Origin: Patescibacteria group bacterium
GTDB lineage: Bacteria > Patescibacteriota > Patescibacteriia > UBA1558 > GWA2-36-10
NCBI GenBank assembly: GCA_041662585.1
Contig: JBAZSG010000001.1
Coordinates: forward strand, 2,381-66,380
Direction of reading: 5' to 3'
Length of the DNA stretch: 64,000 bases
Shown here piece after piece: positions 10,469-59,812 of the stretch. Within the stretch, counting starts at the first letter, position 1. Each line of letters starts with the position of its first letter. The notes beneath the pieces are model-generated. The model was given only the letters and a program-made list of their open reading frames with translations, was not told the DNA's origin and searched no databases. Both the position numbers and the translations under genes were made by a program.

Positions 10469-10556
10469 GGAGAGTTGGCAGAGCGGTCGAATGCGGCGGT
10501 CTTGAAAACCGTTGAGCTGAAAGGCTCCGAGGGTTCGAATCCTTCACTCTCCGCCA
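10469..10556 (+). tRNA. tRNA-Ser (anticodon UGA), type II with long variable arm
   Basis: Cloverleaf: acceptor GGAGAGT/ACTCTCC, anticodon loop CTTGAAA, long variable arm, T-loop GGTTCGAATCC, encoded CCA. Confidence 0.85.
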
Positions 10557-10632
10557 GTCCTCGTAGCTCAGTGGATAGAGCGTTTGGTTGCGGACCAAAA
10601 GGCCGCAGGTCCGATTCCTGCCGGGGACACCA
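10557..10632 (+). tRNA. tRNA-Arg (anticodon read as GCG)
   Basis: Acceptor GTCCTCG/CGGGGAC, D-arm GCTCAGTGGATAGAGC, anticodon stem TTTGG/CCAAA with loop TTGCGGA, T-arm GCAGG-TCCGATT-CCTGC, CCA encoded. The anticodon assignment depends on my manual fold. Confidence 0.75.
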
Positions 10633-10657
10633 TTAAAGACTTATTTTGTATTTATAT

Positions 10658-10747
10658 GGAGAGGTGCCTGAGTGGTTGAAAGGGGCACCCTGCTAAGGTG
10701 TTATTCGGGAAACCGGATCGAGGGTTCGAATCCCTCCCTCTCCGCCA
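10658..10747 (+). tRNA. tRNA-Ser (anticodon GCU), type II
   Basis: Acceptor GGAGAGG/CCTCTCC, anticodon loop CTGCTAA, long variable arm, T-loop GGTTCGAATCC, CCA encoded. Confidence 0.85.
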
Positions 10748-13588: not shown

Positions 13589-14479
13589 TTAAATTGCTGG
13601 TTGTGGAGTACCCCCTCCGCCACCTCCATAAACACCACCTCCATAAACTGGCTCCGTACACCCATCTGGATCCTCAGTTGCACCACCCAAATCATCATTG
13701 TCACAATCACAAGGATCTAATCTCTTATATTCTGCTGTAGAATAAAAACTACAAGAACAATTTCTCCCAACTGGAGACCAAGGGCAATCAATACATTCAT
13801 CAAATTCAAGATTATTATTAACTACTGACCCCTTAAATACTGGCGTGCAAGTATCATCAAAATCACCAACTCCTACCAACTTACAAACATCAAATCTGCA
13901 ACTAGTCTCGTCTTTATAATCTTCGCAATTTTCAACTATTTTGTCCTCGTCTACCACACCATTTTCATCAATACCTTTACAAAATGCTTCTTCTGCCTTA
14001 CTGAGTTCAACAGCTCTTAAAGCTGCTTCGGGTAACTTAATTGTCAAGCTTTGTATTGAATCAAAATCAGAACTAATCTGCCTGAGTAACAATTGTCCAC
14101 CAAACAACAATGCTAAACCAATCAAAACACTAGTAACCATATCTTTGGATTCATTTATTTTTTGAGCGTTGCCAGCGGCCATAAGCCAGCGCCAAGCAGC
14201 AATCACCAACATAAACATAGCTACAATACCGGCAAAGCCAGCACCATAAGTATAAATAGCCACAATATAAGAAGCCAAAAAATCACCACCATGGATAGTA
14301 TTTTCTCCAGCAAAATTGTAGCCATTTATTGTAATTGGTATTGGAACATTTGGCTTATATGTTATATCAACAAAATCTGGTAATCCCAAAGCATCTCCGA
14401 CCTGTGCATTTGCTACAATAGGTAGTATCACAAATAAAGTCACTAATAACCCCAGAATGATTGATTTTTTATTCTTCAT
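13589..14479 (-). CDS. Secreted membrane protein with VirB2/TrbC-like topology (signal peptide plus two TM helices) and a long Cys/Asp-rich C-terminal tail ending in a poly-Gly tract
   Basis: Signal peptide ending PIVANA; hydrophobic hairpin ASYIVAIYTYGAGFAGIVAMFMLVIAAW ... VTSVLIGLALLFGG; tail rich in C/D/E and ending VYGGGVYGGGGGGTPQPAI. Last gene of the T4SS-like operon. Confidence 0.35.
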   Translation of the reverse strand: MKNKKSIILGLLVTLFVILPIVANAQVGDALGLPDFVDITYKPNVPIPITINGYNFAGENTIHGGDFLASYIVAIYTYGAGFAGIVAMFMLVIAAWRWLMAAGNAQKINESKDMVTSVLIGLALLFGGQLLLRQISSDFDSIQSLTIKLPEAALRAVELSKAEEAFCKGIDENGVVDEDKIVENCEDYKDETSCRFDVCKLVGVGDFDDTCTPVFKGSVVNNNLEFDECIDCPWSPVGRNCSCSFYSTAEYKRLDPCDCDNDDLGGATEDPDGCTEPVYGGGVYGGGGGGTPQPAI

Positions 14480-14488
14480 AAAATTTGT

Positions 14489-15712
14489 TTATTTTAATCT
14501 AATGCTTTGTAAATTTCCATAACCATCTGTAAAATATAACAATGATCCATCAGGAGAGGTAAAAAGATTATAAGCCGTATAGGTACCACTATCACCGACT
14601 GGACTAGCAATCAAAGTCTTGGTTCCTGAATTTAAATTTACATAATAAAAATTATCTGGATAACGCTCAGCTATCTCTGGATAAAGACCAGCACCACGAG
14701 GCAGACCTTGTGGCACCGCACAATACATAGCATCTTCCCCAGCAAAAGTACATTTATCTGGCCAAGTAGCAATATTTAATGATACTTTTATATCCCCTAG
14801 TTCACTAGTACGCCCATTGGTCACCCAAATATTTGGATTATAATTTGTACTTTCACTATACACACTATAAACCATACTATTACCTTCTGGAGACCAATCA
14901 TACTCAAAACCAGCTCCATTGACTACAAAAGATTTGAAAGATTCACCGTGTAAACCAATAGGATAAATCTCTTGTCTTTGAGCATCAGCATACTTTCTAT
15001 TGATAATTGCTACTTGATTGTCCGGAGAAAAACCAACAAAAGTATTGTGTGATTGATCGCCTAGTGGTTCTATCAAAGACATACCCGAACCATCATCATT
15101 GGAAGTTATCAACCAATTGTCTTCGTCATTTTGACCGATCCATTTGGCAGCTATCTTACTATTGGAAGTATCAAAAGAAAAATCTTCCAACTCTTGAGGT
15201 AAAGTTACCTGTCTACCTGTTTTAAAATTGTATAAAATATTTGAACCATCAGGATATTCTAAAATAGCTTTTTCAGCATTATTGGCCCAAGTAACATTTT
15301 CAACTTGATAAAATAATTTATCACTCAATTCTTCAAGCTCTCCATTTTCATTGATACGATAAAATTTTTGGCTATTGGTATCATAATATTGCAAGCCACT
15401 TTGACTAGCTGTCAGCCCCTTTATTTCATTGTTTACCAATTCATTGACTCTGGTCAGACCTCCACTAGCTACATCTGAAACTTTGTCTTGGATATAATCT
15501 TGCCAAGGCAAGGATGTGTCATTGGTATTGGTATTATCAACATCAACAATAGATACATTGCCATTACCAATCCCTGGTAAATCACCGGCATTAAAATTGG
15601 CCGGTGGTACAATCGGTGCGCTAGGTTTAAAAAATACATAGTATAAAGCATAGCCTAGTCCAAACACCAAGATAATAAAAGCTATGACTGTAAAAATCTT
15701 TTTTTTATCCAT
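14489..15712 (-). CDS. Membrane-anchored beta-propeller (TolB/PD40-like repeat) protein
   Basis: N-terminal TM anchor FTVIAFIILVFGLGYALYYVFF, then repeated ~40-aa units with W/Y-S-P-D-G patterns (YDWSPEGNSMVYSVYS, FTSPDGSLLYFTD). Confidence 0.45.
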   Translation of the reverse strand: MDKKKIFTVIAFIILVFGLGYALYYVFFKPSAPIVPPANFNAGDLPGIGNGNVSIVDVDNTNTNDTSLPWQDYIQDKVSDVASGGLTRVNELVNNEIKGLTASQSGLQYYDTNSQKFYRINENGELEELSDKLFYQVENVTWANNAEKAILEYPDGSNILYNFKTGRQVTLPQELEDFSFDTSNSKIAAKWIGQNDEDNWLITSNDDGSGMSLIEPLGDQSHNTFVGFSPDNQVAIINRKYADAQRQEIYPIGLHGESFKSFVVNGAGFEYDWSPEGNSMVYSVYSESTNYNPNIWVTNGRTSELGDIKVSLNIATWPDKCTFAGEDAMYCAVPQGLPRGAGLYPEIAERYPDNFYYVNLNSGTKTLIASPVGDSGTYTAYNLFTSPDGSLLYFTDGYGNLQSIRLK

Positions 15713-15744
15713 ATTATATAATATATAAATTCATTTTTAGCTTA

Positions 15745-16209
15745 CTAATCAAACAAACTGGTGATAGTATCCCAAGCAAGATCTAGCCCAAAACCAATTG
15801 GATCAACTAAAATGGTCAATAAAGTCAAGGCTAATAATACAATTGCTGCCAACAAAACACCCAGTATCAACCAAAGAATCAACTCATACAATTCTAGCTT
15901 TGGTATCCACTTTGATCCCATAAGATTGCCACCAATAGCCTGTACAGTCCAAATACCAAAAGTAACCAATAATCCTACACCAGTAGCTCCAGCTCCCCAA
16001 GAAGCTGCTCTAACACTTACTTTTTTGGCCACTTCTTTGACTATCTTATCTCTCCATTCTTTACTGATTTTTTCTCTGGCCTGTCGTTTTATTTGCTCCA
16101 AATCTCTAGCAACAGCTTTGTTAGACGCCCCTTGTAAACTACCAAAGTCTTGCTCTTCTGGTGTTTCCTGAAAATCATCCTGATCTAATGTTGTATCTAG
16201 TGCTGGCAT
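15745..16209 (-). CDS. Small membrane protein of the T4SS-like operon (2-3 TM)
   Basis: Hydrophobic segments GVGLLVTFGIWTVQAIGG and LILWLILGVLLAAIVLLALTLLTILV; charged N-terminus. Confidence 0.4.
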   Translation of the reverse strand: MPALDTTLDQDDFQETPEEQDFGSLQGASNKAVARDLEQIKRQAREKISKEWRDKIVKEVAKKVSVRAASWGAGATGVGLLVTFGIWTVQAIGGNLMGSKWIPKLELYELILWLILGVLLAAIVLLALTLLTILVDPIGFGLDLAWDTITSLFD

Positions 16210-16218
16210 AAAATAAAA

Positions 16219-16773
16219 TTATTTCCAAATTACTTGGTCAACCAACCATTTATCATCTACTTTTAATAAATCTACTTGCGTTTCTTGATAATAAACATTT
16301 TCTTCCAGTTTGGCATTGGTTTCTATTTTTTGGGTATTTACTAATATCTGAGCACTAGTATCATCTATCACTATAATCTGGGCGCTAATACTCTTGGTCG
16401 TCACACCTCTAAATTCTTCAGCACCAAAATTGAGTTTTATATTTTTTAAATAATTTTGCATTTTAACAGTGCTAAGAGACAAGAGCTCACTTAGATTTGC
16501 TCCTTGATTGTCAGTAGACCAAGATCCAAATCTAGCGACATAAGACTTGGCCAAATTGATAGCGGAAAACTCCGTAGGATCCTCTCCAACTACTTTAGTT
16601 GGATCATATTGTAATACTGTGCTAGGTGGTGTAAAAACTGGTGGTGGTGTATTGGTATTTTCATTGACAATTGGAGACTGATCTGAAGTTCTAAGCACCC
16701 AAAGTAAAAAAGCCAAAAGCAGTATAACAATGACTATGGCCAATAATATTTTTTTCCTTTTGTCTTCTTCCAT
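16219..16773 (-). CDS. Bitopic membrane protein, VirB8-like candidate (N-terminal TM plus ~150-aa extracytoplasmic domain)
   Basis: MEEDKRKKILLAIVIVILLLAFLLWVL anchor followed by an alternating beta-rich domain, directly downstream of VirB4. The assignment rests on position and topology only. Confidence 0.3.
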   Translation of the reverse strand: MEEDKRKKILLAIVIVILLLAFLLWVLRTSDQSPIVNENTNTPPPVFTPPSTVLQYDPTKVVGEDPTEFSAINLAKSYVARFGSWSTDNQGANLSELLSLSTVKMQNYLKNIKLNFGAEEFRGVTTKSISAQIIVIDDTSAQILVNTQKIETNAKLEENVYYQETQVDLLKVDDKWLVDQVIWK

Positions 16774-16809: not shown

Positions 16810-18720
16810 CTATGCTTTTTCTGCTTCGGCCATCATTTGTTCTTCAAATTCTTTTTTGGCTTCTTCTATCTCAATCAATTGTCTTGGATCAGAAGTAATG
16901 ATTTGATGTTCTGCATAAGATGCTTGAATCTTTATAGCTGCGTGTTTGGCTCCAGCAAAAAATATCCCCTCTCCCAAACCTGCTTCAAGTAAAAGATATT
17001 TTTCTCCTTCAGTCAACATAAATGTTTTTTGTACTAGATTGACTGCTGCTGGTGTTTGTTTTAAAAGTAATTGTAGAGCACAATTGGTCACAATAGCATT
17101 GCCATAAGTAGAGGTCAAAAAGTCATTGACATCTTGAGTAATGGTAGTAATACCCAAATAATATTTACGACAACGCTTGACCAAGGCATACATAAACTTG
17201 GCACTATCTTCATGTCGCATCATAATCCAAGCTTCATCAACTACTAGCATTCTACGTTTGAGCTCACTTCTGATAATATTCCAGATATAGTTCATGATCA
17301 TATACATAGCAATTGGACGGAGCTCATCTTCTACATCTCTAATACAAAATACTACCAATTGATTATCTACTTTTATATTAGTCGGACTATTAAACAAACC
17401 CGCAAAAGTACCTTCGGTATATTTTTTGATACGTAAAGCCATGTCTTCACCACCCTCCATACTGAGCAATACCTCTTCCAAATCTGACATAACAGGAGCT
17501 TCAATATTGGACAAGTCACTAGCCGCTGTAATATCTTTTTTGGCATAAGTTTCAAGTATTGCCCTATCCAACAAAGAATCTTCTGAATTGGTAATATCGC
17601 CAATCATCAAACGAATCAAACCCTTGAGAGTAATGATAGCACTACGAAGTATATCTTCTGGCTTACTCTCTCCTCCTACTCCTCTTGGCAAATCAAAAGG
17701 ATTGAGCTTGCTCTCAGAATTGAGAGATACATTGATATAAGCTCCACCAACAGATTCAGATAAATGTTGATATTCATTTTCTGGATCAATAATGATAACA
17801 TCTGCTCCCAACATCATAGAACGAAGTATCTCCAACTTGATAGCATAAGACTTACCAGCACCAGAAGTAGCAAAAACTACCATATTGGCATTTTGCAAAG
17901 AAAATCTATCAAACAATATCAAACTATTGTTGTGTCTATTGATGCCATACAAAATACCCTCATCAGAAGTCAGCTCTGATGATACAAAAGGAAATGATGA
18001 AGCAATTGGTGAAGAGTTCATGTTGGTAGAAATGGTGAGTTCGTCATTGCCCAAGGGAAGTGTAGAATTGAATCCTTGTTCAGATTGAAATAATGCCCGA
18101 CGAGAATAGATGAGTTGCATACCCAATAAATTTTCTATCCTATCCGTAGCCAAATCAAGTTCATCTTTGTCTTTGGCATAGATAGTTACATAAAGTGCAA
18201 ATTGAAAAAACTTTTCCGTGCCCTGACTGAGACCATCACGAAGAGCTTCTATATCTTGTAAAGCTGTTTCGGTAATTGGATCACGGGGAGCGCCTTTTTC
18301 ATGATCAGCTATAATCTGAGCCTGCATAGTACCTACTTTATTTTTCAATTGTTTCAGTACTATTTGAATATCCAATGGATAAAAAAACATCGAAATATCC
18401 AAAGTCAAACTTTCATTGATGATAGGAGCAAACCAACCAATGGTAACATAACGAGGATAAGTCATCACAAATAAAGTACGTACAAAAAGATTGTTTAATT
18501 GCAAAAATTTTGGATCTACTTTTAAGGAAGCTGGCGCTATAATATCTCTGACCGAAACAATGCCTTCTCGAAAGACCTTTTCAGCTTCAATCAATTGTTT
18601 ATCTCTGGATATTTGCTCTTCTGGAGATACTTTGGCTCTATCACTAGCCGACAATCTTTCTAGATCTTTATCTACCTTAGTTTCTTTTTGAGCTTGTTTT
18701 ATTTTATTAAAACCAAACAT
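16810..18720 (-). CDS. VirB4/TrbE/CagE-family T4SS ATPase, C-terminal (ATPase) part
   Basis: Walker A VVFATSGAGKSY, Walker B MLVVDEAWIMM, ITQD motif; length and order consistent with the VirB4 NTPase domain. Confidence 0.8.
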   Translation of the reverse strand: MFGFNKIKQAQKETKVDKDLERLSASDRAKVSPEEQISRDKQLIEAEKVFREGIVSVRDIIAPASLKVDPKFLQLNNLFVRTLFVMTYPRYVTIGWFAPIINESLTLDISMFFYPLDIQIVLKQLKNKVGTMQAQIIADHEKGAPRDPITETALQDIEALRDGLSQGTEKFFQFALYVTIYAKDKDELDLATDRIENLLGMQLIYSRRALFQSEQGFNSTLPLGNDELTISTNMNSSPIASSFPFVSSELTSDEGILYGINRHNNSLILFDRFSLQNANMVVFATSGAGKSYAIKLEILRSMMLGADVIIIDPENEYQHLSESVGGAYINVSLNSESKLNPFDLPRGVGGESKPEDILRSAIITLKGLIRLMIGDITNSEDSLLDRAILETYAKKDITAASDLSNIEAPVMSDLEEVLLSMEGGEDMALRIKKYTEGTFAGLFNSPTNIKVDNQLVVFCIRDVEDELRPIAMYMIMNYIWNIIRSELKRRMLVVDEAWIMMRHEDSAKFMYALVKRCRKYYLGITTITQDVNDFLTSTYGNAIVTNCALQLLLKQTPAAVNLVQKTFMLTEGEKYLLLEAGLGEGIFFAGAKHAAIKIQASYAEHQIITSDPRQLIEIEEAKKEFEEQMMAEAEKA

Positions 18721-19400
18721 TATGTTTCGATGGTTAATTTATTTATATTTTCCATTGGTTGTCTTTGAAACAAATCTGGATTATAACTATTATAATACAA
18801 TTCAATCAGAGCCTGTGTACTCAAACGTTGACTCCTGAGTCCTAAACTACCAAGTCCTGAGGCAATAAAATTGCATCTTTTTTCCAATTGAGCACTAAAT
18901 TCTTCAAAACGCTTACGTCCCAAAGTAACTACCTTGGCTGAAGAAAATACGGAAGCAAATCTACTCTTAAAGCCCTTTCGTTTGTCAGTGAGCGAACTAT
19001 AAGGAACTATGACATAAAATTTCTTGCTCATTATCTTTTCTAATGTAAGTAGCTCATTTACAAAGCCTCTATAATCAGCTGTTTGAATACGTAACAATTC
19101 ATTGGTCTGCTCTCGCTCCACTTTTTTTAATCTATCCATATAATCATCAATATTTAGTGGTCTAGAATGTATAACTACTTGTAATGGATAATCTAGGGTA
19201 TTTAAAAAATTTACATAATTGCCAATTATAGCCCGTTGTTCATCTTCTGATTTTAAATCAAAGTTTACAGAAGATACCAATAGTACTCCTCTCACTGTTC
19301 CATCATTTAAAACTACTAGATCATCCCTGATCTCAGCAATATCCAAATATTTTTGTGTCGAAGTCAATACTTTTTTTCCAGCCAATTTTTTATTTTTCAT
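18720..19400 (-). CDS. VirB4-family N-terminal domain encoded as a separate ORF (split VirB4)
   Basis: YLDIAEIRDDLVVLNDGTVRGVLLVSSVNFDLKSEDEQ resembles the conserved start of VirB4/TrbE proteins. The stop overlaps the ATG of the ATPase ORF (TAATG). Confidence 0.55.
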   Translation of the reverse strand: MKNKKLAGKKVLTSTQKYLDIAEIRDDLVVLNDGTVRGVLLVSSVNFDLKSEDEQRAIIGNYVNFLNTLDYPLQVVIHSRPLNIDDYMDRLKKVEREQTNELLRIQTADYRGFVNELLTLEKIMSKKFYVIVPYSSLTDKRKGFKSRFASVFSSAKVVTLGRKRFEEFSAQLEKRCNFIASGLGSLGLRSQRLSTQALIELYYNSYNPDLFQRQPMENINKLTIET

Positions 19401-19416
19401 ACTACTTTATAATATA

Positions 19417-19893
19417 TTAAATATTATCCTCTGAAAAACTAACATTGTTTTCCCTATTTACTTGTTTTTCTCCTTTATACATACCACCAGTATCAATGAT
19501 CAAAGAAAGCTCTGATAACTTTCTACTGGAACTGAGTCTTTTGGGAACAAAAATTTCTTCTTTTGTTTCTTTGTCTTCTTTTGATTTGTATTCTTCTACT
19601 TTTATATGTTCTTTGCGCCAAATACGAAGGGCTGGTTTTTTGAAAGTTGTTTCAATAAAATTAAGAGCAAAGGTATGAAAAGGAGCTCCGTTTACTTTAT
19701 AAAAAGCAAATATACTCACTAAAATCACAATAATTACTGCCCAAAAAATAAATAATGAAAAATCTGAAAGTTTATAGGCAATAAAACCAAAAAGTAAACC
19801 AGCTAAAATAATGATAAACTGACGGACTGTAATCGGTCCCCAAATCCTATCTTCTATGTCTATAAATTGTGGTACTATAAATCTTTCTGGCAT
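19417..19893 (-). CDS. PrgI/VirB3-like small membrane protein (two TM helices)
   Basis: RQFIIILAGLLFGFIAY and LFIFWAVIIVILVSIFAFY hairpin near the N-terminus, lying immediately upstream of VirB4 as is typical for VirB3 analogs. Confidence 0.45.
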   Translation of the reverse strand: MPERFIVPQFIDIEDRIWGPITVRQFIIILAGLLFGFIAYKLSDFSLFIFWAVIIVILVSIFAFYKVNGAPFHTFALNFIETTFKKPALRIWRKEHIKVEEYKSKEDKETKEEIFVPKRLSSSRKLSELSLIIDTGGMYKGEKQVNRENNVSFSEDNI

Positions 19894-19896
19894 AAA

Positions 19897-21300
19897 TTAA
19901 AATCTTAATTGCTTGTTCAAGTCAGATATAGCCGAAAATTCTTCTATAGTAAAAGTAGCTTTGTTATTTCTTTCACTTTCTTGTATAAATTCAGCAACTT
20001 CTTTACCAGCTATCATACTATCAGCGCCCAATTGTAAATACAGCTTATAAGCTTGACTACTTCTCCAAGCAGCAATGCCTTGGGCTTTTTTGGTATATGA
20101 CTCTTGTTCCAATAAATTAATTTTATCAAAAATCTTTTGAATTCTTTCTTTGGGTGTATTGCCCAAACGACGAAACCCAACCAAATCAAAAGATTTTAAT
20201 TCTTGTATTGGGCCAGTCAAAGCATCTTTTAAAGCAAAAGACTCATCTGCTTGCTTTTGTATTTCTTTTTTTGGTATTACTACATCACTAATCGGCTTTT
20301 TAAAACTTTGAGCGACTGTTGCTCTAGATACTTTTGGTAAAAATGTTTCTGTATTTTTTTGATTATCTGTGTCTTCAATTTTAGCTGCCGCTTCTTTTAT
20401 AGCCGCTTGCTTTTTCATCAAAGTTTCTGCAGATAACTCATGGATTGAGGCTTTTTTGATGGGTATTTCTTGATGGATATCTTCAGAAATAGCTGGAATA
20501 GAAAATCCTTCAGCTGGCTTGGATGTTTTTCCTAAACTTGATTTTAAATTGGCAGTATTTTTGATAGCCGCTTGCAAAACTGGATCAGTCTTTGTTTCCA
20601 AAATAGGTAATTCTCCTAAGGCTGCTTTTATCTCATCTTGAGCTGACAGTTGTTGGCTAGCTGAAGACTCCAACATAACCGCTGTTTTTTCTGATTTTGG
20701 TTTTTCAATTTTTAGTTCTTTCAAATCAGCTTGATTGACCACTAGTCCTCCGGCTAAATCAATTTTATTTTTAATACCTTTGATGATAGATAAAATATTA
20801 TCAATTACATTGGCTGATAATTTTTTATTATTTGATAAAACACTATTTACCAAAAGCTCCCGAATAATCACTGCACTTTTTCTGCTTCTAAAAAAATTAT
20901 ATAAAATATTAGAAAAAATCTTTTTATTTTTTTCATCAAATACTAAATTTTGTTTTTCAATAATACGATCAACTATCTTTTCTACACTATATTTTTTGCT
21001 ATCGTCTTGTGGTATATTTTTGGCAAAAAAATCAAGTTCTTCTTTGTCTTCAGGATGAAAAACAAGTTCTGCTTTATCTTGAGAGCCAGCATTAATATTT
21101 GGTATAGATAAAAAACTATCGTCCTTTGGTGCTAAATTTCCTTCAGAAACATGATTAATTTGAGAACCAATATCAACAGAATCAGTCTTTTTATTGGAAT
21201 TTAAATGCCCAAAATTGCCTTTTTCATCTTTAATCAAAAGAGCATCAGACCAATTATTAGTACTCAAAACATTTGCTACTTTATTATTTGAAAAATCCAT
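19897..21300 (-). CDS. Hypothetical Lys-rich soluble protein, first gene of the T4SS-like operon
   Basis: 467-aa ORF with no TM segment or signal peptide and a coiled-coil-like composition. It is 3 nt upstream of the VirB3-like gene. Confidence 0.4.
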   Translation of the reverse strand: MDFSNNKVANVLSTNNWSDALLIKDEKGNFGHLNSNKKTDSVDIGSQINHVSEGNLAPKDDSFLSIPNINAGSQDKAELVFHPEDKEELDFFAKNIPQDDSKKYSVEKIVDRIIEKQNLVFDEKNKKIFSNILYNFFRSRKSAVIIRELLVNSVLSNNKKLSANVIDNILSIIKGIKNKIDLAGGLVVNQADLKELKIEKPKSEKTAVMLESSASQQLSAQDEIKAALGELPILETKTDPVLQAAIKNTANLKSSLGKTSKPAEGFSIPAISEDIHQEIPIKKASIHELSAETLMKKQAAIKEAAAKIEDTDNQKNTETFLPKVSRATVAQSFKKPISDVVIPKKEIQKQADESFALKDALTGPIQELKSFDLVGFRRLGNTPKERIQKIFDKINLLEQESYTKKAQGIAAWRSSQAYKLYLQLGADSMIAGKEVAEFIQESERNNKATFTIEEFSAISDLNKQLRF

Positions 21301-21461: not shown

Positions 21462-22019
21462 TTAAGCTCTTTCTACATATTCACCAGTCTCAGTATTGAT
21501 AATAATTTTTTCTCCTGATTTTATAAATAAAGGAGTCCTTATTTCTAAATCATTTTCCAATATTACTGTTTTGGTAATTGATCCAGCACTATTGCCCTTT
21601 ACTCCCTCGGGGGCTGATTTGACTTCTAGAGTAATTTTGGTCGGCAAAGCAATGGACACTGGATTATTGTTGAAAACCAAAACATCCACTTCTTGACCAT
21701 CTATAAGATATTTTACCAAATCGCCCAAACTATCTTCAGAAAATTGAAACTGCTCAAAACTTTCATTATCCATAAAATGAAAATCATTGTCTTGCTTATA
21801 AAGAAAATTGGCTTTGCGACGAGTAATATCTGCTTCAGCTATACTATCTGCACCGGAAAATGTCTTTTCCAAAGTATTGCCAGAGATCAAATTTTTGAGC
21901 TTGGTTTTCATCACTGCTCCACCTCTAGCAACTTTGATATGTTGGTTCCAAACTACTTGATAAGGCTCATCATTGACAGAGATTACTCTGCCTAATTTTA
22001 AATCATTTAATCCTAACAT
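21462..22019 (-). CDS. efp: Elongation factor P
   Basis: MLGLNDLKLGRVISVNDEPYQVVWNQHIKVARGGAVMKTKLKNL... The track ORF (to 22139) extends 40 codons upstream over rpsR, so the internal ATG at 22017-22019 is the likely start. The residue equivalent to E. coli K34 is Arg (ARGG). Confidence 0.88.
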   Translation of the reverse strand: MLGLNDLKLGRVISVNDEPYQVVWNQHIKVARGGAVMKTKLKNLISGNTLEKTFSGADSIAEADITRRKANFLYKQDNDFHFMDNESFEQFQFSEDSLGDLVKYLIDGQEVDVLVFNNNPVSIALPTKITLEVKSAPEGVKGNSAGSITKTVILENDLEIRTPLFIKSGEKIIINTETGEYVERA

Positions 22020-22023
22020 AATA

Positions 22024-22242
22024 TTATTTTGATGCGTAAGGAAGTAAGGCCATAAAACGAGCTCGTTTGATAGCTTGAGCCAATATTCTTTGGTGTTTTG
22101 AACAAACGCCACTTCTTCTCTTTGGCACAATCTTACCATAAGAGGATGTAAAACGTTTTAATTGTTGCCAATTTTTATAATCAATATCTGAGATATTATT
22201 TACACAAAAATGACAATATTTACTAGTTTGTTTTGTATGCAT
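22024..22242 (-). CDS. rpsR: 30S ribosomal protein S18
   Basis: CHFCVNNISDIDYKNWQQLKRFTSSYGKIVPKRRSGVCSKHQRILAQAIKRARFMALLPY. Confidence 0.9.
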   Translation of the reverse strand: MHTKQTSKYCHFCVNNISDIDYKNWQQLKRFTSSYGKIVPKRRSGVCSKHQRILAQAIKRARFMALLPYASK

Positions 22243-24610: not shown

Positions 24611-25867
24611 TTATATTTTATCTACCCAAGCAAATTTATTGGCTAATACTTGTATAGTACACCATTTAAATTTTTGATCTTGCTTATCCAAATACATCAC
24701 TTGCCCAGAATCTGCTCCTGTATTGGTCAGATAATAAATAGCGGCGTATAATTCATCAGCCGAAAATTTTAATTTTTCTACCAAAAGCATCTCCAAAAAA
24801 AGACGCAAAACTATAAGTTTTTCTATATTTTCATCCAAAGATCTCTCCATACTCTGACCAAACTTTATACCAATAAATCTCTTGAGTATGCTTTTATACC
24901 TAGAATCTTCTTTGATCATAAAATCAAAGGATTTTTTTTCTAGCAAAATTTTGAGACAAGAAATTGCCTTATATTTGTCTTCTACGCCAATAGCTTGCCA
25001 GAGTATATCCCTGACTTTATTTATATCATTATTAGCTTCAGAAAGTATCATATCACTAGAAGGCAAATTTTCTTGAAATAGATCTAAAGTATTTTTAAAA
25101 TTTGTCAAAACTTTTTCAAAAGACAACTCATAGTCATCATTATCTTCTTCTCTGGATTTTTTTTCTACTTGCTCTTTGACTATCAAAAGCCCATCTGATC
25201 TATCAAAATAAAGCTCTATATCTTCATCATAAGATAACAATAAAAAACGTAAACTATCCTTATATTTATCCTCTAGTTGTAAAGCATTTTTATTTTTGGC
25301 AATATATCTTGTCCTCTCCAAAGAGCTATGTTGGCCGGCACCCAAAAAATGTACATAATCCTTAATCCAATTTTGTACACTAGGGTTTGTTATCCTTCCT
25401 CTTTCATCTAATATCTTATTGGGTGTTAAACGAAAATCTTTGAATTCTTCATATTTTTTTAAGAGTTCTTTTACTTTTCCTTGAAAAATTTCTGGTAAAA
25501 CATCAGGTTCTACCACTTGTTTTTTCTTTAAAAAAACTGGCCTGGGCACTTTGCCTCCCAAACGCAAAATTAATCTATCCACTCCTCCGATATATTCTTG
25601 GAGTGGCCAAAATATTTCCATTGCCATTTGCAGAGCCAATTCTCTAAGATCTCCTTTAAATTCTCCCGGTATTTTTTCCAAATCTTTGGGCAGATCAAGG
25701 ATATTTCTTTTTTTGAGAATAATATCATCTTCCAATTTATTTACAAAATCAAATTGCTCAAAATTAAAAGAAAATTTATCATCTATAGCATAATTGACAT
25801 CTGCTACCTCAGTCCAAATAAAATCTTGTACTTCCTCTGGTAAAATATTTAAATCATTTATATTCAT
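24611..25867 (-). CDS. Hypothetical soluble protein, last gene of the giant-protein operon
   Basis: 418-aa ORF lying 10 nt downstream of the VirB6-like gene. No recognisable motif. Confidence 0.45.
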   Translation of the reverse strand: MNINDLNILPEEVQDFIWTEVADVNYAIDDKFSFNFEQFDFVNKLEDDIILKKRNILDLPKDLEKIPGEFKGDLRELALQMAMEIFWPLQEYIGGVDRLILRLGGKVPRPVFLKKKQVVEPDVLPEIFQGKVKELLKKYEEFKDFRLTPNKILDERGRITNPSVQNWIKDYVHFLGAGQHSSLERTRYIAKNKNALQLEDKYKDSLRFLLLSYDEDIELYFDRSDGLLIVKEQVEKKSREEDNDDYELSFEKVLTNFKNTLDLFQENLPSSDMILSEANNDINKVRDILWQAIGVEDKYKAISCLKILLEKKSFDFMIKEDSRYKSILKRFIGIKFGQSMERSLDENIEKLIVLRLFLEMLLVEKLKFSADELYAAIYYLTNTGADSGQVMYLDKQDQKFKWCTIQVLANKFAWVDKI

Positions 25868-25877
25868 TTACAATATA

Positions 25878-28800
25878 TTATTTAATCTTACTTAGGCTAC
25901 CTTTATCTACTGCGGCTGCTTTTTTCTTTGCTTCCCTTATAGTTATACCAGGTATTTCTTGCATAAACTTTTGTACATGCATCTGTACATACAATTCATT
26001 TCTGATGGTATCTGCCAAATTATCTGTAACGACTTTACCTAGTTTACCTCCTCCACCCACGATAGATTGAGCTAGAAGTTTTATTTGGTCTGAATTACCA
26101 GCTTGAAGAATTTGTCTTTGTTGATCAACTGTAGCTACTTTAGCCAATTCTTCAAACAAATGACGAGTATTTGGATGCTTAATATCCATTTCTTCTAGCC
26201 TTGAATAATCTGATCCATCTGTACCATTTTTTAATATAGCCCTAGAATAAAGATTCTTATTATTAGGATTGGTTAATCCAAGCTCTCTTCTCTTCAAAGT
26301 ATTTTGTAAACGTATTAAACTATTTTGCTCTGATAATAATTTTGAAACAAGCTTTTTATCAGGGTCTGGTTTAGCTTTTTCTGTAGCTATATCTTGCTTC
26401 AATTCTTCTATTCTAAGATTATTTTTATTATTTGGATCATTCAAGTCTTTTAATTTACTAGTAATAGCTTTTCGTAAAGCTTCAGCTTCTTTATCATAAT
26501 TTGCCTGATCAAAAACAAATCTATCGTTTTCTTTCTTCTGATCTCTCTTATGGTCTTTTTCTGCCTGTTTTTCCATTCTTTCTCTAATCTCGTTTCTGAC
26601 TCTTTCTTCTGCCTTTTCTCTTGACTCTGGTGGAGTGCCATCAAAACCAGCTTGTGTCTTTGGAGACCAAGCTTTCATCGCTTCTTCAACCTTTTCATCT
26701 AATTCATCTTCATCTATTTCTTGTCTTTGTACTGTTTTTGCCCGCTCTGGTCTTGGCCCTAAATTGGCCAAAATAGCAGCTTCCATATCAGCTATTATAT
26801 CTTCTTCCATGACCTTAAATACAGGTGATTCACGCAAACCTAATTTGGATTTTTCTACATAAGCCAATTCTTCTTCTAACCCTTTTCTTTCCTCTTTACT
26901 TAAACCAGTATTAGTTAATTTTACTTTTAATTCTGTTGCCTGTTCTTCTAATTTAACTTCCTCTTCTTTTATTTCATCATTGGTATAATGCCCCATGAGA
27001 TTTCTTCTGGTCTTATACAATTTGTCAGTCGCTTCTTTACCTTTGTCACTGTTTTGCCATTCTTCGTTATTTTTGTCCCATGCTTCTTTTGTTTTGGCTT
27101 TTCTTATTTCAAAATCTTTTTCAGACTCAAAAGAATTTTTAGCAAGATGATTTATTGAATCATTATCAAAATTGACTTCTCCACTATTAAATCCTTGTTC
27201 TAAGGCCCCTACTATAGCTTCGTGCAAAGCTTCGGCTTGTTCTGGATAAACTTGAAGAAGAGCTTCAAATAATTTTATAGCTTCATTTTGATCATTTGTA
27301 GAAAGAACTCCTTTGTTGTTATGTTTAGTCTCTTGACGCTTGGTTTCTAAATTTACTTCAGTAGCCAACATACCAAGATCTTTTTTGTCTTTAGCGGTTC
27401 CTCTGATACCATCTTTATCTTTTTTACCATATTTAATATCTGCTCCCTTCTCTGTATCATTATTTATATCTACCAAAACCTCCTCTCCTTCTTGACGAAA
27501 TGCTTCTGATTCAGCTTGCCTTGTCTTTTTAAATTGATTTAATACATCCCTACCAATACCTCCACCTTCATAATTTGGATCTTCCAAAAGAGCCCTGATA
27601 ATATTACGCATACCTGCTGTTGTTTTACCATCTTCGTCTAAAACACCATCAGCTTCCTTATCAAGCAATTTTCTAGAGCCAACATCATTTAGATCTTTTT
27701 TAACAGCCGCTAAATCTGTATTGGTATTTGCATATCGAGCATGTAAGGCATCAATCCTAGGTTGATCATTTATTCTCTCTAAAGCTTCAATATCCTCAGC
27801 TGCTTGTTTTGCATCGTGTTGTTCTTTTCTATCGGTTCTTATGATGGCTGCTTTTGTTTTTGCTTCATCATGTCCACCTCCCCAAGAAGTAATAAGCTGT
27901 GTCGCCCTCGCTACTTTAGAACTCTCTCCAATAGCCTTAGGTAAAAATTTACCAATTAACGGAATATCTTTTAATTTATCAGGTGTAGATGATTGAGTTC
28001 TATAAAATTCTTCTTTTTGTTTAGGATTAATATATTTGGTATCTTCCGCGTGTTCAGCAAGAATCCTAGCTGTGTTTCTACCTTGCATTTCCATAGCTCC
28101 TCTTTGCAGTTTACCTCCATAAAAAGGTACTTTGGTAGCAACTCCTGTAAATTTACCCAAAAGTGTATCCTTCTTTGGTTTTCCTTTATCATCTACCATA
28201 CGCTCAGCAATAGCAGTGCCGGCTCTCATAGCCAAAGCTTTTGGATAACGTCTAGCAATATGTCCAGCTGTGCTCTGAATTTTGGCCATACCCTTGGCTG
28301 CCACACTAGCTCCAGCCGCACCAGAAGCAGCTGCCATCTTAATACCCATCATAAGTAAGGCAATAGCAATGATATAATTCATCATATTACTGCTATCCAA
28401 AAATTCAGTTGCTCCTTGTGCCCCTCCTCCGGTCATAAAAGTACTATAGGCATTTCCATTGCCAACAATACTAAAAGTAAGCCACAAGAAAAAAGCCAAC
28501 ATCGGACCAGTTACCAGATTGGTACCTAGCTGTTTTGTCCAAGTATTATAAAAACTATTGGTAGCTGGAAAAATACTAGCCATAAAAGCCAAAGGAGCCA
28601 TAATAATAGCTATCCACAAAGCTACAATTCTCATCATCAACATCATAACCATTACGCCCACAATTACCACAAGTATTGCTACTAGAGCTGCTCCTAAAAC
28701 CATAGATACTACATAATCCCCAAAACCAGTAACAGGAGCATCGGGATTAATAGTGGTAAATTTATGCAAACCAATGGCGACCACCACTCCTCCTGACATT

Positions 28801-29264
28801 ATTTCATTGATAGCTGAAATAAAAGTAAGCATTATTACTTGTACCACATCAATAAAAAATCCCACAATGGTCTTGGAAAAATTTATCAAAATAGCCACAA
28901 GTATTGTACGTTTTAAAAGTTGTTGGTAACCATAACTGGAAATTCTCAGTATAGTCGCAAAAGAAATAACCAATAATATTAAAATAAAAAACATATTGGA
29001 CAAATCACGAAGTGCTATCCAACCCAATGTCACGCCTGCTTCATGAGTAAAACCATTGTAACTAGCCACAAGTTTCAAAAGTTCCAATTCCAATTCAAGA
29101 ATCCAAACAAAAGGTTGCATAAAAAATGTCCAGATTACACCACCTACTAGCTGTATAACAGCCTCTACAAGTGCCAAAGATTTCATGGGAGCCAAAGAAA
29201 ACAAACTCAAGGCAAGTACAAAATATTGCCATCTGATAGCTAGTTTATGTTTTTTAAACTTCAT
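25878..29264 (-). CDS. VirB6/TrbL-like polytopic membrane protein with ~700-aa charged coiled-coil C-terminal extension
   Basis: Residues 1-340 contain 7-9 hydrophobic helices with Gly/Ala-rich loops, as in TrbL/VirB6. The remainder is K/E/D-rich with heptad-like character and no Cys. Confidence 0.45.
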   Translation of the reverse strand: MKFKKHKLAIRWQYFVLALSLFSLAPMKSLALVEAVIQLVGGVIWTFFMQPFVWILELELELLKLVASYNGFTHEAGVTLGWIALRDLSNMFFILILLVISFATILRISSYGYQQLLKRTILVAILINFSKTIVGFFIDVVQVIMLTFISAINEIMSGGVVVAIGLHKFTTINPDAPVTGFGDYVVSMVLGAALVAILVVIVGVMVMMLMMRIVALWIAIIMAPLAFMASIFPATNSFYNTWTKQLGTNLVTGPMLAFFLWLTFSIVGNGNAYSTFMTGGGAQGATEFLDSSNMMNYIIAIALLMMGIKMAAASGAAGASVAAKGMAKIQSTAGHIARRYPKALAMRAGTAIAERMVDDKGKPKKDTLLGKFTGVATKVPFYGGKLQRGAMEMQGRNTARILAEHAEDTKYINPKQKEEFYRTQSSTPDKLKDIPLIGKFLPKAIGESSKVARATQLITSWGGGHDEAKTKAAIIRTDRKEQHDAKQAAEDIEALERINDQPRIDALHARYANTNTDLAAVKKDLNDVGSRKLLDKEADGVLDEDGKTTAGMRNIIRALLEDPNYEGGGIGRDVLNQFKKTRQAESEAFRQEGEEVLVDINNDTEKGADIKYGKKDKDGIRGTAKDKKDLGMLATEVNLETKRQETKHNNKGVLSTNDQNEAIKLFEALLQVYPEQAEALHEAIVGALEQGFNSGEVNFDNDSINHLAKNSFESEKDFEIRKAKTKEAWDKNNEEWQNSDKGKEATDKLYKTRRNLMGHYTNDEIKEEEVKLEEQATELKVKLTNTGLSKEERKGLEEELAYVEKSKLGLRESPVFKVMEEDIIADMEAAILANLGPRPERAKTVQRQEIDEDELDEKVEEAMKAWSPKTQAGFDGTPPESREKAEERVRNEIRERMEKQAEKDHKRDQKKENDRFVFDQANYDKEAEALRKAITSKLKDLNDPNNKNNLRIEELKQDIATEKAKPDPDKKLVSKLLSEQNSLIRLQNTLKRRELGLTNPNNKNLYSRAILKNGTDGSDYSRLEEMDIKHPNTRHLFEELAKVATVDQQRQILQAGNSDQIKLLAQSIVGGGGKLGKVVTDNLADTIRNELYVQMHVQKFMQEIPGITIREAKKKAAAVDKGSLSKIK

Positions 29265-29299: not shown

Positions 29300-32200
29300 T
29301 TATTCATCATAGACAACTATCCAGCCATTGAATGGCATGACTCGATACCAATACCAATTGTCCATCACTGTAATACTAGGTTGATAACATGAAGCATTTG
29401 GTATATTTGGTTTGAGTGGTGTACCAGGAGCTCCTCCAGCAGCACCATTGCAATCATGTTGTCTGCTAGCATCATAGGTATAGTCATGATAAAATATTTT
29501 ATAACCTGGACGACAAGCATCTTCTGTGCCAGCAAAACCCATTTTCTGAATTTCTTTGCCAATGGTTGTTGGATTGGCATCTCCTGGAGCATCTTTTTCA
29601 GGATTACAATATTCAGCTGGTAAAGAATTTTGATATTTACCTGGATTTGGAAGATTGTTGTCAATATCATCCCCCCAATTGGCCGTAATACTGTAAACTG
29701 GCATATGATCTGGATGGGCATGATAAAAGAATTTAACATTTACAAACAATGAGCCATCAAGACCAGTCAAAGTAGCACCTACAGTATTGACATCATTTAC
29801 CGTGATACCTTCTTTTACGCCTACTACATTACCAGCGGCATCTACTGTTTCACATAATGAATCACCACAGGTAGCCAAAATACGTGGTCTATAATCTGGA
29901 CCAGCATAAGGATTGGAATGATTACCAGCATTTAACTCAGGGGCATCAAGATATTGATAAGTACTAGAAGCGGCTATCCATTCAAAATTGTAAACTCTAA
30001 AAAATATACCTTTCATTTCCAATTGAGCAGCATTTAAAGCCTCGTCCAAAGTATTTACCAATGGATCGTAATTTCCAAAAAAAGTACCAGCAGTAATATT
30101 ATCATTACTTACTTTATAGTAAGGTACCCTAGTAGCCACCACTCTATTTTTAATAAAAGTATCTAAACCAGCACCAAAATGTGAAAAATTGGCTGGATAA
30201 CCGGAATCACTTGGATAACCAGTCAAACCAGATATCTGATTATACAACACTTCATCATCTATAGCATTTGGGTTGGAAGCGATATAACCATTTGTTGAAT
30301 TCCAATACCAAGAAGACCAAGGTGGCACTACAACTCTTTTGCCATCTTCTTTGTTTCTCCACCAAATATCAGTACGTAAAGCTGATTTCAATCCTTCACT
30401 GTCTAGCTGAGTAACTACACGACACTGTTGATAACAATCTAGAGAATTAATAACATCACAATTAATCCCTATGCTTATACTAGCATGTGTTATTGGAGAA
30501 TCTACTAAACTACAAGATTTACAAAATTTTTCTAAACCAGCTTCATCAACCTCCGTACCCCCTCCAAATGATCGTCTTGTAAAATTATCTTCATTATCAG
30601 TAAGGCACTTATCATAGACACTGGCATCATATATCCCCGCTGGTCCAAATGTATCATTGATATCACCAGCAACTATCCTAGCTGTAGCTGGATCATCATC
30701 ATGATCTTTGTTACTAAAACAAGCTATTGATTCAGCATACATTGCTTGACTAGATATATAACCATATAGATTAATTGGATCGTCTATATACTGAAAACAA
30801 TTATCGTAAAGACTACAAAAATGTGATTCATTTTGATTGCTAATAGTCAAACTTTCTATACAATCTACAAATAAACAATCGTTAACATTTTCGCTTGCCT
30901 GACATGTGGCTAAAGCAAAACCATTGGCTGCTGTAGCACTTGGATAGGAAGCTAAAATGCCAGAGTAAGTAGGTGATAAATTATCATCCTGCAAACAACC
31001 ACGACCATGATTGTAATCAAAGACAGAAACATTTATAAATTTGCAATCATCAGCACAACTACCTACATAACTTGGCTCTACTGGCTCAAATGTTTGTGGA
31101 CCACTATTTAAATCAACATAATAATTTTGACGGTACGGGTTATAATATGCTACTGTGTGTCTCCACTTATGCGTACCACACCAACCTCCCTTTTTACAAT
31201 ATTGATAAACAAGATGACCGTCATCATAAGCTATTGGTGCCGGACAATTACCACAGTCACTACTTGTAAGTCGCACTGTTGCATCTGGGATATTGACAAA
31301 AGCCGAACCACCGCTAGCTCCACTTGGTGCAACACCATCATCAAAATAAAAACGATGGATACCTGGACTAGCCAAATGCGTAGTATCAAACATAGTGTCA
31401 ATTATACCTACAAAATCCAATGTTGTTGGATAAACATTATTAAAATATGAAAATCTATCAAATTTTGAACCATAACCTTCGTAGGGAGTCAAAATAAGAT
31501 CTCTACCAACATTATTATCAGCGGCTGCCCAGATTGAAAAATCTTTGTCTTTTTCTATCCAAGTTCCTTCATCTAATAAATCACTATAATTAGCTGCTAC
31601 TTCAAGATTTATTTTAGAGCCAGCCGGGACTCTCATCAAAAGATTACACTGTCCTTCTTCGCTAGCTCGGTCAAAACGACCACAATAGTATCTATCTTTA
31701 GTAGTTACATATGGTTCGGATACTGCACAAAACAAAGCATCATATCCAGATGGTTCAAAATAACCAGCGGCTCTATAATTGTCATAAAGACTAGCTGTTC
31801 CTTGAATTTTTTGAGCTGGATACCATTGGTTACAATAATATGAACTTTCTATATCTTTTACTACTGACCGGCTAAGATCATGTTCCAAACAAATACCTGG
31901 CCAATTTTGATAGGTTATTTCTTCAGTTTTAAGGGCACAAAAACCATCATTTCTAGAGGTATTATCTGGATTTCTAGAATCACAATCTGAATTTTCTTCA
32001 CAAAAATTTGGATCCAATTTTTCCTGAGTATTAGGATCAACTCCAATAAGTTTTCCTGAAGTACAAATACCTTTTGGTATAGCATCACTATCTATATTGG
32101 CTGGATAATAGAAAGTTTTTTGACCAGCCCCATAAGTGACTTTTTTAAAGGAGTCTTCACAAGAATTTGGATTATCTAGGTCACTATTACAAATATTACC

Positions 32201-59735: not shown

Positions 59736-59812
59736 TGGTCGTCCTGCTGGGACTTGAACCCAGGACCCCCACTTTATAAGAGTGGTGCTCTAACCAGCTG
59801 AGCTACAGGACG
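59736..59812 (-). tRNA. tRNA with anticodon UAU (tRNA-Ile, AUA-decoding type) as folded by hand
   Basis: Reverse complement folds as acceptor CGTCCTG/CAGGACG, D-arm GCTCAGCTGGTTAGAGC, anticodon stem CCACT/AGTGG with loop CTTATAA, T-arm CTGGG-TTCAAGT-CCCAG, discriminator A, CCA encoded. Confidence 0.75.

Follow-up and report, generated by a model that had tools for sequence, protein, structure and literature searches.

Described systems with an intact or divided VirB4

In single-chain VirB4 proteins such as CD1110 (NF045971), Mbov_0397 (NF045975) and TrwK of R388 the chain is uninterrupted, whereas in the T4SS cluster described here it is broken inside the N-terminal domain. A comparable arrangement is known from pSK41/pGO1 of Staphylococcus (MPF_FATA, pGO1 subclass), where, as here, a VirB3-like gene (trsC/prgI) is followed by a small gene and then by the gene for the VirB4 ATPase. 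The sizes also correspond (227 aa for TrsD and 672 aa for TrsE of pSK41, against 226 and 636 aa here), but in pSK41 a 14-nt spacer separates trsD and trsE where the present genes overlap, the two small proteins are only remotely similar in sequence (33 bits on NF041427, for which the cutoff is 200), and pSK41 is a conjugative plasmid with a relaxase and a coupling protein, whereas the cluster studied here is chromosomal.

For Patescibacteria, a T4SS with a matching component set, consisting of VirB4, a TrsD homologue, PrgI/VirB3 and VirB2-like pilins, was described by Quinonero-Coronel et al. (2025; PMC12102498). In that study, TrsD homologues, retrieved with the authors' own TrsD profile, outnumbered every other T4SS component in Patescibacteria, and 1,664 of the 2,272 adjoin virB4. 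The TrsD homologue of Ca. Southlakia epibionticum is essential (PMC12102498), and the essential T4SS of this organism was reported by Wang et al. (2023; PMC10633639). The combination of TrsD and VirB4 is thus a published and typical form of the Patescibacteria T4SS, essential in one cultivated species, and finding it once more has little discovery value; the geometry of the junction and the equivalence of the split point are not discussed in PMC12102498 and are documented here.

VirB4 is likewise split on the megaplasmids of Pontibacillus sp. ALD_SL1 and B. thuringiensis Bt407 (BTB_502p), where the gene for a 'hypothetical protein' of 274 or 328 aa overlaps the start of a VirB4/DUF87 gene of 621 or 661 aa by 11–14 nt. 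Upstream of the split VirB4, Bt407 has a PrgI-family gene and Pontibacillus an unannotated gene of 116 aa, and the Pontibacillus cluster has a Mbov_0395 pilin-like gene nearby. These Bacillota pairs differ from the present one, with 27–29% identity, longer small proteins and a location on plasmids. Plastic gene boundaries at the N-terminus of VirB4 are also evident from the VirB3–VirB4 fusions of some conjugative systems, which represent fusion and not fission (PMC12102498); no such fusion was found in Patescibacteria in the same study.

The T4SS cluster

The window, i.e. the whole stretch of 64,000 nucleotides that was analysed, contains the following features around the divided virB4:

19897..21300, minus strand: ORF of 467 aa that matches no family, first gene of a tightly packed cluster
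19417..19893, minus strand: gene for a PrgI-family (VirB3-like) membrane protein (PF12666 PrgI, E 6.5e-11, 43 bits, with the cutoff at 27)
18720..19400, minus strand: TrsD-like gene, 226 aa (ORF call, profile and structure matches)
18718..18722, minus strand: TAATG junction, in which the TAA stop and the ATG start share one base (from the sequence)
16810..18720, minus strand: gene for the VirB4 ATPase, 636 aa (C-terminal NTPase domain, preceded by what remains of the N-terminal domain)
18601..18690, minus strand: N-terminal tail (residues 11–40) of the ATPase, variable and rich in indels (per-column conservation)
17848..17871, minus strand: Walker A motif ATSGAGKS, ATPase residues 284–291 (read from the translation)
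17233..17250, minus strand: Walker B motif MLVVDE, ATPase residues 491–496 (read from the translation)
14489..16773, minus strand: three ORFs downstream of the ATPase gene, of 184, 154 and 407 aa, with hydrophobic segments at the N-terminus or internally
13589..14479, minus strand: candidate VirB2-like pilin gene, 296 aa, with a Cys-rich C-terminal extension (weak profile matches)

The order is thus prgI, the TrsD-like gene and the ATPase gene, with 16 nt between prgI and the TrsD-like gene and a gap of 3 nt between prgI and the preceding 467-aa ORF, which is found upstream of prgI in same-strain Logan contigs as well. The three ORFs downstream of the ATPase gene gave sub-threshold matches only in a family search, and from their position they are probably further T4SS membrane components. 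The candidate pilin matches PF18895 T4SS_pilin (E 0.004) and NF045849 Mbov_0395 pilin-like (E 0.0023), both below the curated cutoffs. The cluster is chromosomal and adjoins rpsF-ssb-rpsR-efp. Since a replication origin has been reported near the T4SS in many Patescibacteria, an origin was sought here too; the GC skew was negative throughout, and the ORFs scanned included neither dnaA nor dnaN.

Two genes that jointly cover VirB4

The 636-aa protein has Pfam matches to P-loop_TraG (PF19044, E 6.8e-28), AAA_10 and DUF87, scores 346 bits on NF045971 (CD1110-family VirB4), above the cutoff of 325, and in the structure database matches 4AG5, the CTD of T. pseudethanolicus VirB4 (E 2e-48), and TrwK (7O41, E 1e-7). 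Together with the Walker A and B motifs this supports the first-pass annotation, which had placed the NTPase domain in this ORF. Its residues 14–591 align with positions 145–729 of the 752 of NF045971 (E 3.9e-103), residues 37–608 with positions 275–893 of the 894 of NF045975 (E 2.1e-84), and the protein also aligns with residues 186–750 of a fused Carboxydocella VirB4 of 754 aa (E 1e-67); its core, from residue 59 onwards, aligns with pSK41 TrsE from residue 36 (BLASTP E 1e-44).

The 226-aa protein, which had been proposed to carry the conserved N-terminal segment of VirB4, is colinear with the ATPase on the same full-length VirB4 profiles: its residues 4–139 match positions 92–239 of NF045975 (E 2.4e-10) and, more weakly, residues 29–132 match positions 16–119 of NF045971 (E 8.7e-4). 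The proposal is further borne out by its alignment with residues 3 to 129–131 of the fused Carboxydocella VirB4 (BLASTP E 5e-16; hhalign probability 98.2%) and by the fold comparison given below. The joint colinear matches to VirB4 are far beyond chance, and the summed length of 862 aa is, as had been remarked before, normal for VirB4, the matching profiles having 752–894 positions. As compared to the fused VirB4 profiles, about 80–100 extra residues are present around the junction. The C-terminal third of the small protein (residues 137–226) is strongly conserved in its family and does not align with the fused Carboxydocella VirB4.

The exact 226-aa protein is a Patescibacteria MAG protein, and the best 120 of its 1575 homologues are all 197–234 aa long. 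Residues 16–132 match positions 16–142 of the 201 of NF041427 (TrsD/TraD) with an E value of 4e-8 and 33.3 bits, far under the 200-bit cutoff, which indicates homology and not equivalog-level membership. When a family alignment of 104 sequences was compared with pSK41 TrsD by hhalign, residues 12–208 aligned with residues 31–217 of 227 (probability 92.9%, E 3.8e-7), which means end-to-end homology. Precomputed hits to PF26593 'TraC-like' exist for P0001, a protein 100% identical to the present one, and for all 120 best homologues, and the same name is listed for the TrsD-like gene on Logan contigs; our own Pfam search of the 226-aa ORF did not report PF26593, and the Pfam copy used is probably older than the family. 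The small protein is encoded on its own, is homologous to the initial part of VirB4's N-terminal domain and most probably belongs to the TrsD / PF26593 family. This known stand-alone family membership had been missed in the first-pass annotation. Many members of the TrsD family have long low-complexity tails (P0122, P0136, P0270). A PrgI–TrsD fusion was considered for the N-terminally extended members and rejected, the extensions being low-complexity, Q/P/A-rich tails.

Structure prediction with AF2 gave an unusable model when a shallow alignment of 17 sequences was supplied (pLDDT 48), and was redone with the 104 sequences, which raised the pLDDT to 83.7. In a Foldseek search of the PDB with the latter model the top 14 matches were all TrwK/VirB4, with a probability of 1.00, an E value of about 2e-3 and a modest TM score of 0.37–0.47, and with alignments spanning 182–214 of the 226 columns. 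Since the Foldseek output gives no target residue range, it is the colinearity of the sequences that places the small protein on the N-terminal part of TrwK. A sequence search of the PDB with the profile of the small protein gave no match, so that its link to TrwK comes from the fold search.

The junction and its conservation

The two ORFs run on the minus strand from 19400 to 18720 and from 18720 to 16810, and are joined by TAATG as described previously: the junction reads GAA ACA TAA, and the final A of the stop codon is also the first base of the ATG. The frame relationship had been given as +1, which is incorrect; the start-to-start distance is 680 nt, or 3x226+2, and this puts the ATPase gene in the -1 (=+2) frame. 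Each ORF has its own stop and start codons, and the NTD and CTD are not on a single polypeptide. An SD-like motif is absent upstream of all 44 genes in the window (44/44), which makes this feature uninformative with respect to coupling.

Comparison with orthologues confirmed the split throughout, the two genes being separate in all 79 of the related species-level loci in which both are present, and the TrsD-like gene adjoins the ATPase gene in 79 of 80 related loci. When junction classes are assigned by a first-ATG rule, stop and start overlap in 39 of the 79 loci (by 1, 4 or 8 nt), gaps of 0–18 nt are present in 29 and gaps of 26–127 nt in 11. The ATPase gene lies in the +1 frame in 40 loci, in the +2 frame in 27 and in frame 0, with an intervening stop, in 12. 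The TAATG sequence is identical in 17 of the 79 species loci, and it recurs exactly in nine independent metagenome contigs, with no length variant; a metagenome scan that permitted 0–9 inserted bases at the junction found the 0-gap form only.

The Met-Phe start of the ATPase is conserved across junction types. In 71 orthologues, identity over the following residues 11–40 is 0.11–0.14, with gaps up to 0.42, after which it rises to 0.6–0.97, and the conserved ATPase core begins near residue 41. The variable, gapped segment 11–40 resembles a linker remnant. Fusion of the two parts is rare. P0232 (898 aa) is the single fused protein among the 150 best representatives (50% clustering), and it carries a P/A-rich linker of 97 aa at the region equivalent to the variable tail of the ATPase. 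In fused relatives, which include P0232 and the Carboxydocella VirB4, a simple, flexible linker connects the two parts. According to the alignments, the split lies at the same position as that between trsD and trsE of pSK41. The best 120 homologues of the ATPase are 563–682 aa long.

Alternative explanations

Three readings of the junction had been put forward, namely a genuine split with translational coupling, a programmed frameshift, and an indel from sequencing or assembly, and of these the genuine split is supported whereas the other two are refuted. A single virB4 broken by a 1-nt error would be compatible with two ORFs that abut with a one-base overlap and add up to a normal VirB4 length. 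Moreover, two same-strain Logan contigs break off precisely at the junction, and initially this gave the impression of faulty assembly. An A/G difference between strains accounts for the breaks; it is located exactly 31 nt upstream, a distance equal to the assembler k, and, with the 0-gap form as the only one found, junction polymorphism or misassembly was rejected. Since a TAA is located 7 codons upstream of the ATG in the frame of the ATPase gene, only a single indel at the junction could restore one frame, and this is seen in no relative. The split in 79/79 related loci, with differing junction geometries and frames, the half-size length of all close homologues of each part, and the identical TAATG in nine independent contigs make a sequencing or assembly error so improbable that we regard it as virtually eliminated. 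Scarcely better are the prospects of a programmed -1 ribosomal frameshift near the end of the TrsD-like gene, producing some fused, full-length VirB4, although the ATPase gene is in the -1 frame and a rare fused relative exists (P0232). A slip would be confined to the last 7 codons (AAA TTA ACC ATC GAA ACA TAA), and this segment, which includes the stop, holds no slippery heptamer of the form X XXY YYZ, as used in frameshift genes of the dnaX / IS3 type. The different frames of the relatives, of which some have the ATPase start 26–127 nt downstream, leave no possibility of a common recoding signal, and the Met-Phe start is kept whatever the junction type.

A more serious competitor, but still an improbable one, is that the TrsD-like protein derives from VirB4 as a paralogue and has taken on an independent role, e.g. 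in assembly, in regulation or as an adaptor, at a different stoichiometry. TrsD lacks an assigned function, and the Gracilibacteria homologues mostly do not adjoin virB4 (PMC12102498). The low-complexity tails of many family members, the family-wide conservation of residues 137–226 outside the region aligned to the fused Carboxydocella VirB4, and the long spacers in some relatives, which allow separate regulation, would also fit such a role. On the other hand, the ATPase lacks exactly the segment that TrsD provides, its alignment to fused VirB4 beginning around positions 145–275 of the profiles, and fused forms exist with a simple linker between the two parts. Adjacency in 79 of 80 loci and the coverage of most of the small protein in the TrwK alignments likewise argue against independence.

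Proposed arrangement and implications

The split is genuine, conserved and already known, and we consider it highly probable that it represents the standard two-polypeptide VirB4 of Patescibacteria (monoderm, pGO1/pSK41-like), encoded by two co-oriented genes. The 226-aa product of the TrsD family would then fold independently and be homologous to the initial part of VirB4's N-terminal domain, and the 636-aa product would supply the remainder of this domain and the ATPase domain with its Walker A and B motifs. The two proteins may assemble non-covalently, and by analogy with R388, where VirB3 wraps the VirB4 NTD (PMC9259494), the TrsD-like part may contact the PrgI/VirB3-like membrane protein encoded just upstream. 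According to PMC12102498, physical association of TrsD with VirB4 or PrgI has not been demonstrated anywhere. The geometry of the TAATG overlap suggests that translation is probably coupled, i.e. that ribosomes ending on the TrsD-like gene can restart on virB4, which would lead to roughly equimolar synthesis. Since 11 of the 79 relatives have spacers of 26–127 nt, coupling cannot be obligatory.

The same split boundary in Patescibacteria, pSK41-type plasmids and Bacillota megaplasmids, in combination with fused forms in which only a flexible linker is added, leads to the speculation, which we think rather doubtful, that TrsD is a deliberately dissociable sub-domain of VirB4. Reversible docking of TrsD between the PrgI/VirB3 membrane anchor and the ATPase ring could then act as a checkpoint in assembly or activation of the monoderm T4SS. 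The identity of the split point with that of pSK41, the variable junctions and the rare fused forms with a disordered linker could guide experiments on TrsD function. For annotation the result does matter: the 226-aa gene commonly carries the label 'hypothetical protein', and annotators should neither merge the two genes nor treat them as a pseudogene or a frameshift.

Organization of the split virB4 gene

In the window, VirB4 is encoded by two abutting minus-strand ORFs with one base common to stop and start codon, as the first-pass annotation had described:

19417-19893, minus strand: prgI, a PrgI-family (VirB3-like) gene
19400..18720, minus strand: N-ORF, TrsD-like gene, 226 aa
18718-18722, minus strand: TAATG junction
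18720..16810, minus strand: C-ORF, VirB4 ATPase gene, 636 aa

The N-ORF ends with GAA ACA TAA, the ATG of the C-ORF starts on the final A of this stop codon, and an in-frame TAA is present seven codons upstream of that ATG in the C-ORF frame. The start codons are 680 nt apart (3 × 226 + 2), so that, relative to the N-ORF, the C-ORF has the -1 (= +2) frame and not the +1 frame initially reported.

Together, the two ORFs constitute a VirB4. In profile searches with NF045975 (894 positions), N-ORF residues 4-139 correspond to positions 92-239 (E 2.4e-10) and C-ORF residues 37-608 to positions 275-893 (E 2.1e-84); on NF045971 of the CD1110 family (752 positions), N-ORF residues 29-132 correspond to positions 16-119 (E 8.7e-4) and C-ORF residues 14-591 to positions 145-729, with 346 bits against a cutoff of 325 bits. 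A fused 754-aa VirB4 from a Carboxydocella plasmid matches N-ORF 6-134 with its residues 3-129 (E 5e-16) and C-ORF 59-618 with its residues 186-750 (E 1e-67), and hhalign of the N-ORF with the N-terminus of this protein gave a probability of 98.2%. This colinearity supports the earlier identification of the N-ORF as the N-terminal segment of VirB4; no residues are missing at the junction, and about 80-100 are extra as compared to the fused profiles.

A Walker A motif is present in the C-ORF at residues 284-291 (ATSGAGKS) and a Walker B motif at residues 491-496 (MLVVDE). The C-ORF also matches 4AG5, a solved VirB4 C-terminal domain (E 2e-48), as well as TrwK of R388 (E 1e-7) and, weakly, a model of the archaeal DNA-import ATPase CedB (E 1.6e-13). 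A sequence search of the PDB with the N-ORF profile gave no match. With an AlphaFold model of the N-ORF (104-sequence alignment, pLDDT 83.7, pTM 0.73), the top 14 Foldseek matches were all TrwK/VirB4 chains (E about 2e-3, probability 1.00, TM at most 0.47 over 182-214 aligned columns), and all remaining matches had E >0.2.

Conservation of the split and variation of the junction

The division of VirB4 over two genes is real. At E ≤1e-3, 1575 homologues of the N-ORF were found, of which the best 120 are all proteins of 197-234 aa from Patescibacteria MAGs (59-100% identity); the best 120 homologues of the C-ORF measure 563-682 aa (70-100% identity). When 1.84 billion cluster representatives were searched with a profile, 3201 relatives were recovered, P0232 (898 aa) being the sole fused protein among the best 150. 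We further compared 80 loci, each from a different species, of the Komeili-, Parcu-, Nomura-, Kerfeld-, Magasanik-, Veblen- and Kuenenbacteria. In 79 of these, an N-ORF of 225-241 aa with its own stop codon is followed by an ATPase ORF with its own ATG (619-661 aa where complete); the remaining locus is truncated and was left out of the junction counts. The split itself is invariant across these relatives, whereas the geometry of the junction is highly plastic.

Table Junctions between the two genes in 79 loci (first-ATG rule, with one manual correction, L079, true gap 6 nt)
20-nt overlap: 1
14-nt overlap: 1
8-nt overlap (ATGTTTAA / ATGTTTGA): 17
4-nt overlap (ATGA): 3
1-nt overlap (TAATG): 17
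Gap of 0-18 nt: 29
Gap of 26-127 nt: 11

A relative frame of +1 accounts for 40 loci and one of +2 for 27; in the other 12 the frame is shared (0) but interrupted by a stop codon. The 8-nt overlaps (L006, L011, L014, L015, L017, L021-L023, L025-L030, L032, L033, L039) lie near locus position 4679-4687; the ATG-TTT of the ATPase gene falls within the final TrsD-like codons, and the conserved Met-Phe start is thus dual-coded with the upstream C-terminus in 17 species.

Of the three explanations put forward earlier, a genuine split is therefore the correct one, as separate genes with differing junctions occur in all 79 loci that include both. A sequencing or assembly indel that breaks a single virB4 is refuted, since 79 species with different junctions cannot all reproduce one error. 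Moreover, when metagenomes were scanned with a pattern that left room for 0-9 extra bases at the junction, the nine matching contigs, which come from eight assemblies, all had the 0-gap TAATG. A programmed frameshift yielding a fused VirB4 is likewise refuted, because it cannot work across all three relative frames and long spacers, and the seven codons that end the window's N-ORF (AAA TTA ACC ATC GAA ACA TAA) hold no slippery heptamer.

The exact 226-aa N-ORF is also encoded on two Logan contigs, each from a different sequencing run, that break off one base past its stop codon (L085 3580-3682 and L086 2216-2318, corresponding to window ~18719-18821). An anomaly at the junction was rejected as the cause. 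Contig alignment revealed co-occurring close strains with GAT GAT ATA where the window's strain has GAA AAT ATA, and, counted from the G of the C-ORF ATG, the A/G difference is located exactly 31 nt upstream, so that paths in a k=31 de Bruijn graph merge there.

Position of the split and relation to TrsD/TrsE

The N-ORF scores below the cutoff for NCBIfam NF041427, 'TrsD/TraD family conjugative transfer protein' (E 4e-8, 33 bits against 200), and its precomputed Pfam family is PF26593, 'TraC-like'. Plasmid pSK41 has the order trsC (135 aa, placed as prgI is in the window), trsD (227 aa) and trsE (672 aa, VirB4-like), the last two being separated by a 14-nt spacer. TrsD aligns end-to-end with the N-ORF family profile (probability 92.9%, residues 12-208 against 31-217) and TrsE from residue 36 aligns with the C-ORF core from residue 59 (E 1e-44), which indicates that the split position is the same. 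The same arrangement is present in Bacillota on a Pontibacillus megaplasmid (274 and 621 aa, 11-nt overlap) and on the B. thuringiensis Bt407 megaplasmid (PrgI, 328 and 661 aa, 14-nt overlap).

In the fused P0232, which may be either a genuine fusion or the result of reading through an intergenic spacer, residues 2-224 match N-ORF 3-223 and residues 322-890 match C-ORF 49-616, with a P/A-rich low-complexity linker of about 97 residues in between. Among 71 orthologues, C-ORF residues 11-40 are indel-rich and poorly conserved (identity 0.11-0.14), conservation being confined to a short N-terminal MFxxxKIK and to residue 41 onward; the N-ORF is conserved throughout, including its C-terminal RLxTQALIELYYNSYNP motif. 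The linker and the variable segment thus place the split in a flexible inter-subdomain linker inside the VirB4 N-terminal domain rather than at the NTD/CTD boundary.

Many members of the TrsD-like family (P0122, P0136, P0270) carry extensions of 80-220 residues, N- or C-terminal to a conserved core of about 215 aa; these are of Q/P/A-rich low complexity, and their interpretation as PrgI fusions was rejected. Among archaea, Halobacterium hubeiense plasmid NZ_LN831303.1 (145493-145942; H12) is weakly matched in tblastn by residues 15-149 of the TrsD-like protein (27.6% identity, E 7e-3).

Among the T4SS components of Patescibacteria, a TrsD homologue is the most abundant, with 2,272 homologues in 2,221 assemblies, 1,664 of them associated with VirB4; outside this group TrsD occurs only in the pGO1 subclass of MPF_FATA, and it lacks an assigned function (Quinonero-Coronel et al., PMC12102498). 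The homologue is essential in Ca. Southlakia epibionticum ML1 (PMC12102498), the essential T4SS of which was described by Wang et al. 2023 (PMC10633639). The window locus adds a further member to this known system, and the split was already known. What is added here to these published accounts is the equivalence of the split point to that of pSK41 TrsD/TrsE, the plastic junction geometry with an invariant split, and the disordered linker in rare fused forms.

Gene cluster and possible functioning

A co-oriented, tightly packed cluster, its genes separated by only 3-36 nt, comprises a 467-aa ORF, prgI, the trsD-like gene, virB4 and another four ORFs. It lies on the chromosome, directly downstream of rpsF-ssb-rpsR-efp and convergent with recG. 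The TrsD-like protein and the ATPase have complementary domain content and probably assemble non-covalently to a functional VirB4, in which the TrsD-like part would probably contact the PrgI/VirB3-like protein. The TAATG overlap probably permits coupling by termination-reinitiation; the long spacers in 11 relatives show that such coupling is not obligatory. Essentially none of 44 window genes is preceded by a Shine-Dalgarno-like motif, so its absence before virB4 is uninformative, and initiation in this organism appears to be SD-independent. Anti-SD duplex energies at the 44 gene starts are about 0 kcal/mol, below -5 in one gene only, and the leaders are A/T-rich.

A possible VirB2-like pilin with an additional fused domain is encoded by a 296-aa ORF (13589-14479, minus strand). 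Its product combines a signal or TM segment with a stretch of weak similarity to T4SS pilins (residues ~74-126), after which come a Cys-rich region and a tail rich in Gly.

Other features of the window

The window has a GC content of 34%, and its GC skew is negative throughout, giving no sign of a replication origin. Further features are:

10469-10747, plus strand: tRNA cluster Ser(UGA), Arg(GCG), Ser(GCU), the first two directly abutting (10556/10557)
21462-22139, minus strand: efp ORF, mechanical call, 225 aa, about 40 codons longer upstream and overlapping the rpsR ORF
22024-22242, minus strand: rpsR ORF
24611-25867: 418-aa ORF, no Pfam match
25878-29264: 1128-aa ORF, no Pfam match
29300-38065, minus strand: giant ORF, 2921 aa, sole Pfam match CBM_4_9 carbohydrate-binding domain (E 1.4e-8)
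59736-59812, minus strand: tRNA-Ile, anticodon UAU (ARAGORN; Rfam tRNA 71.8 bits)

The efp call on same-strain Logan contigs has 185 aa, and the true start is therefore an internal ATG. AUA is decoded in most bacteria by a CAU tRNA with a lysidine modification, the UAU tRNA-Ile being the less common solution. The 2921-aa ORF and the 1128- and 418-aa ORFs downstream of it probably encode large surface proteins.
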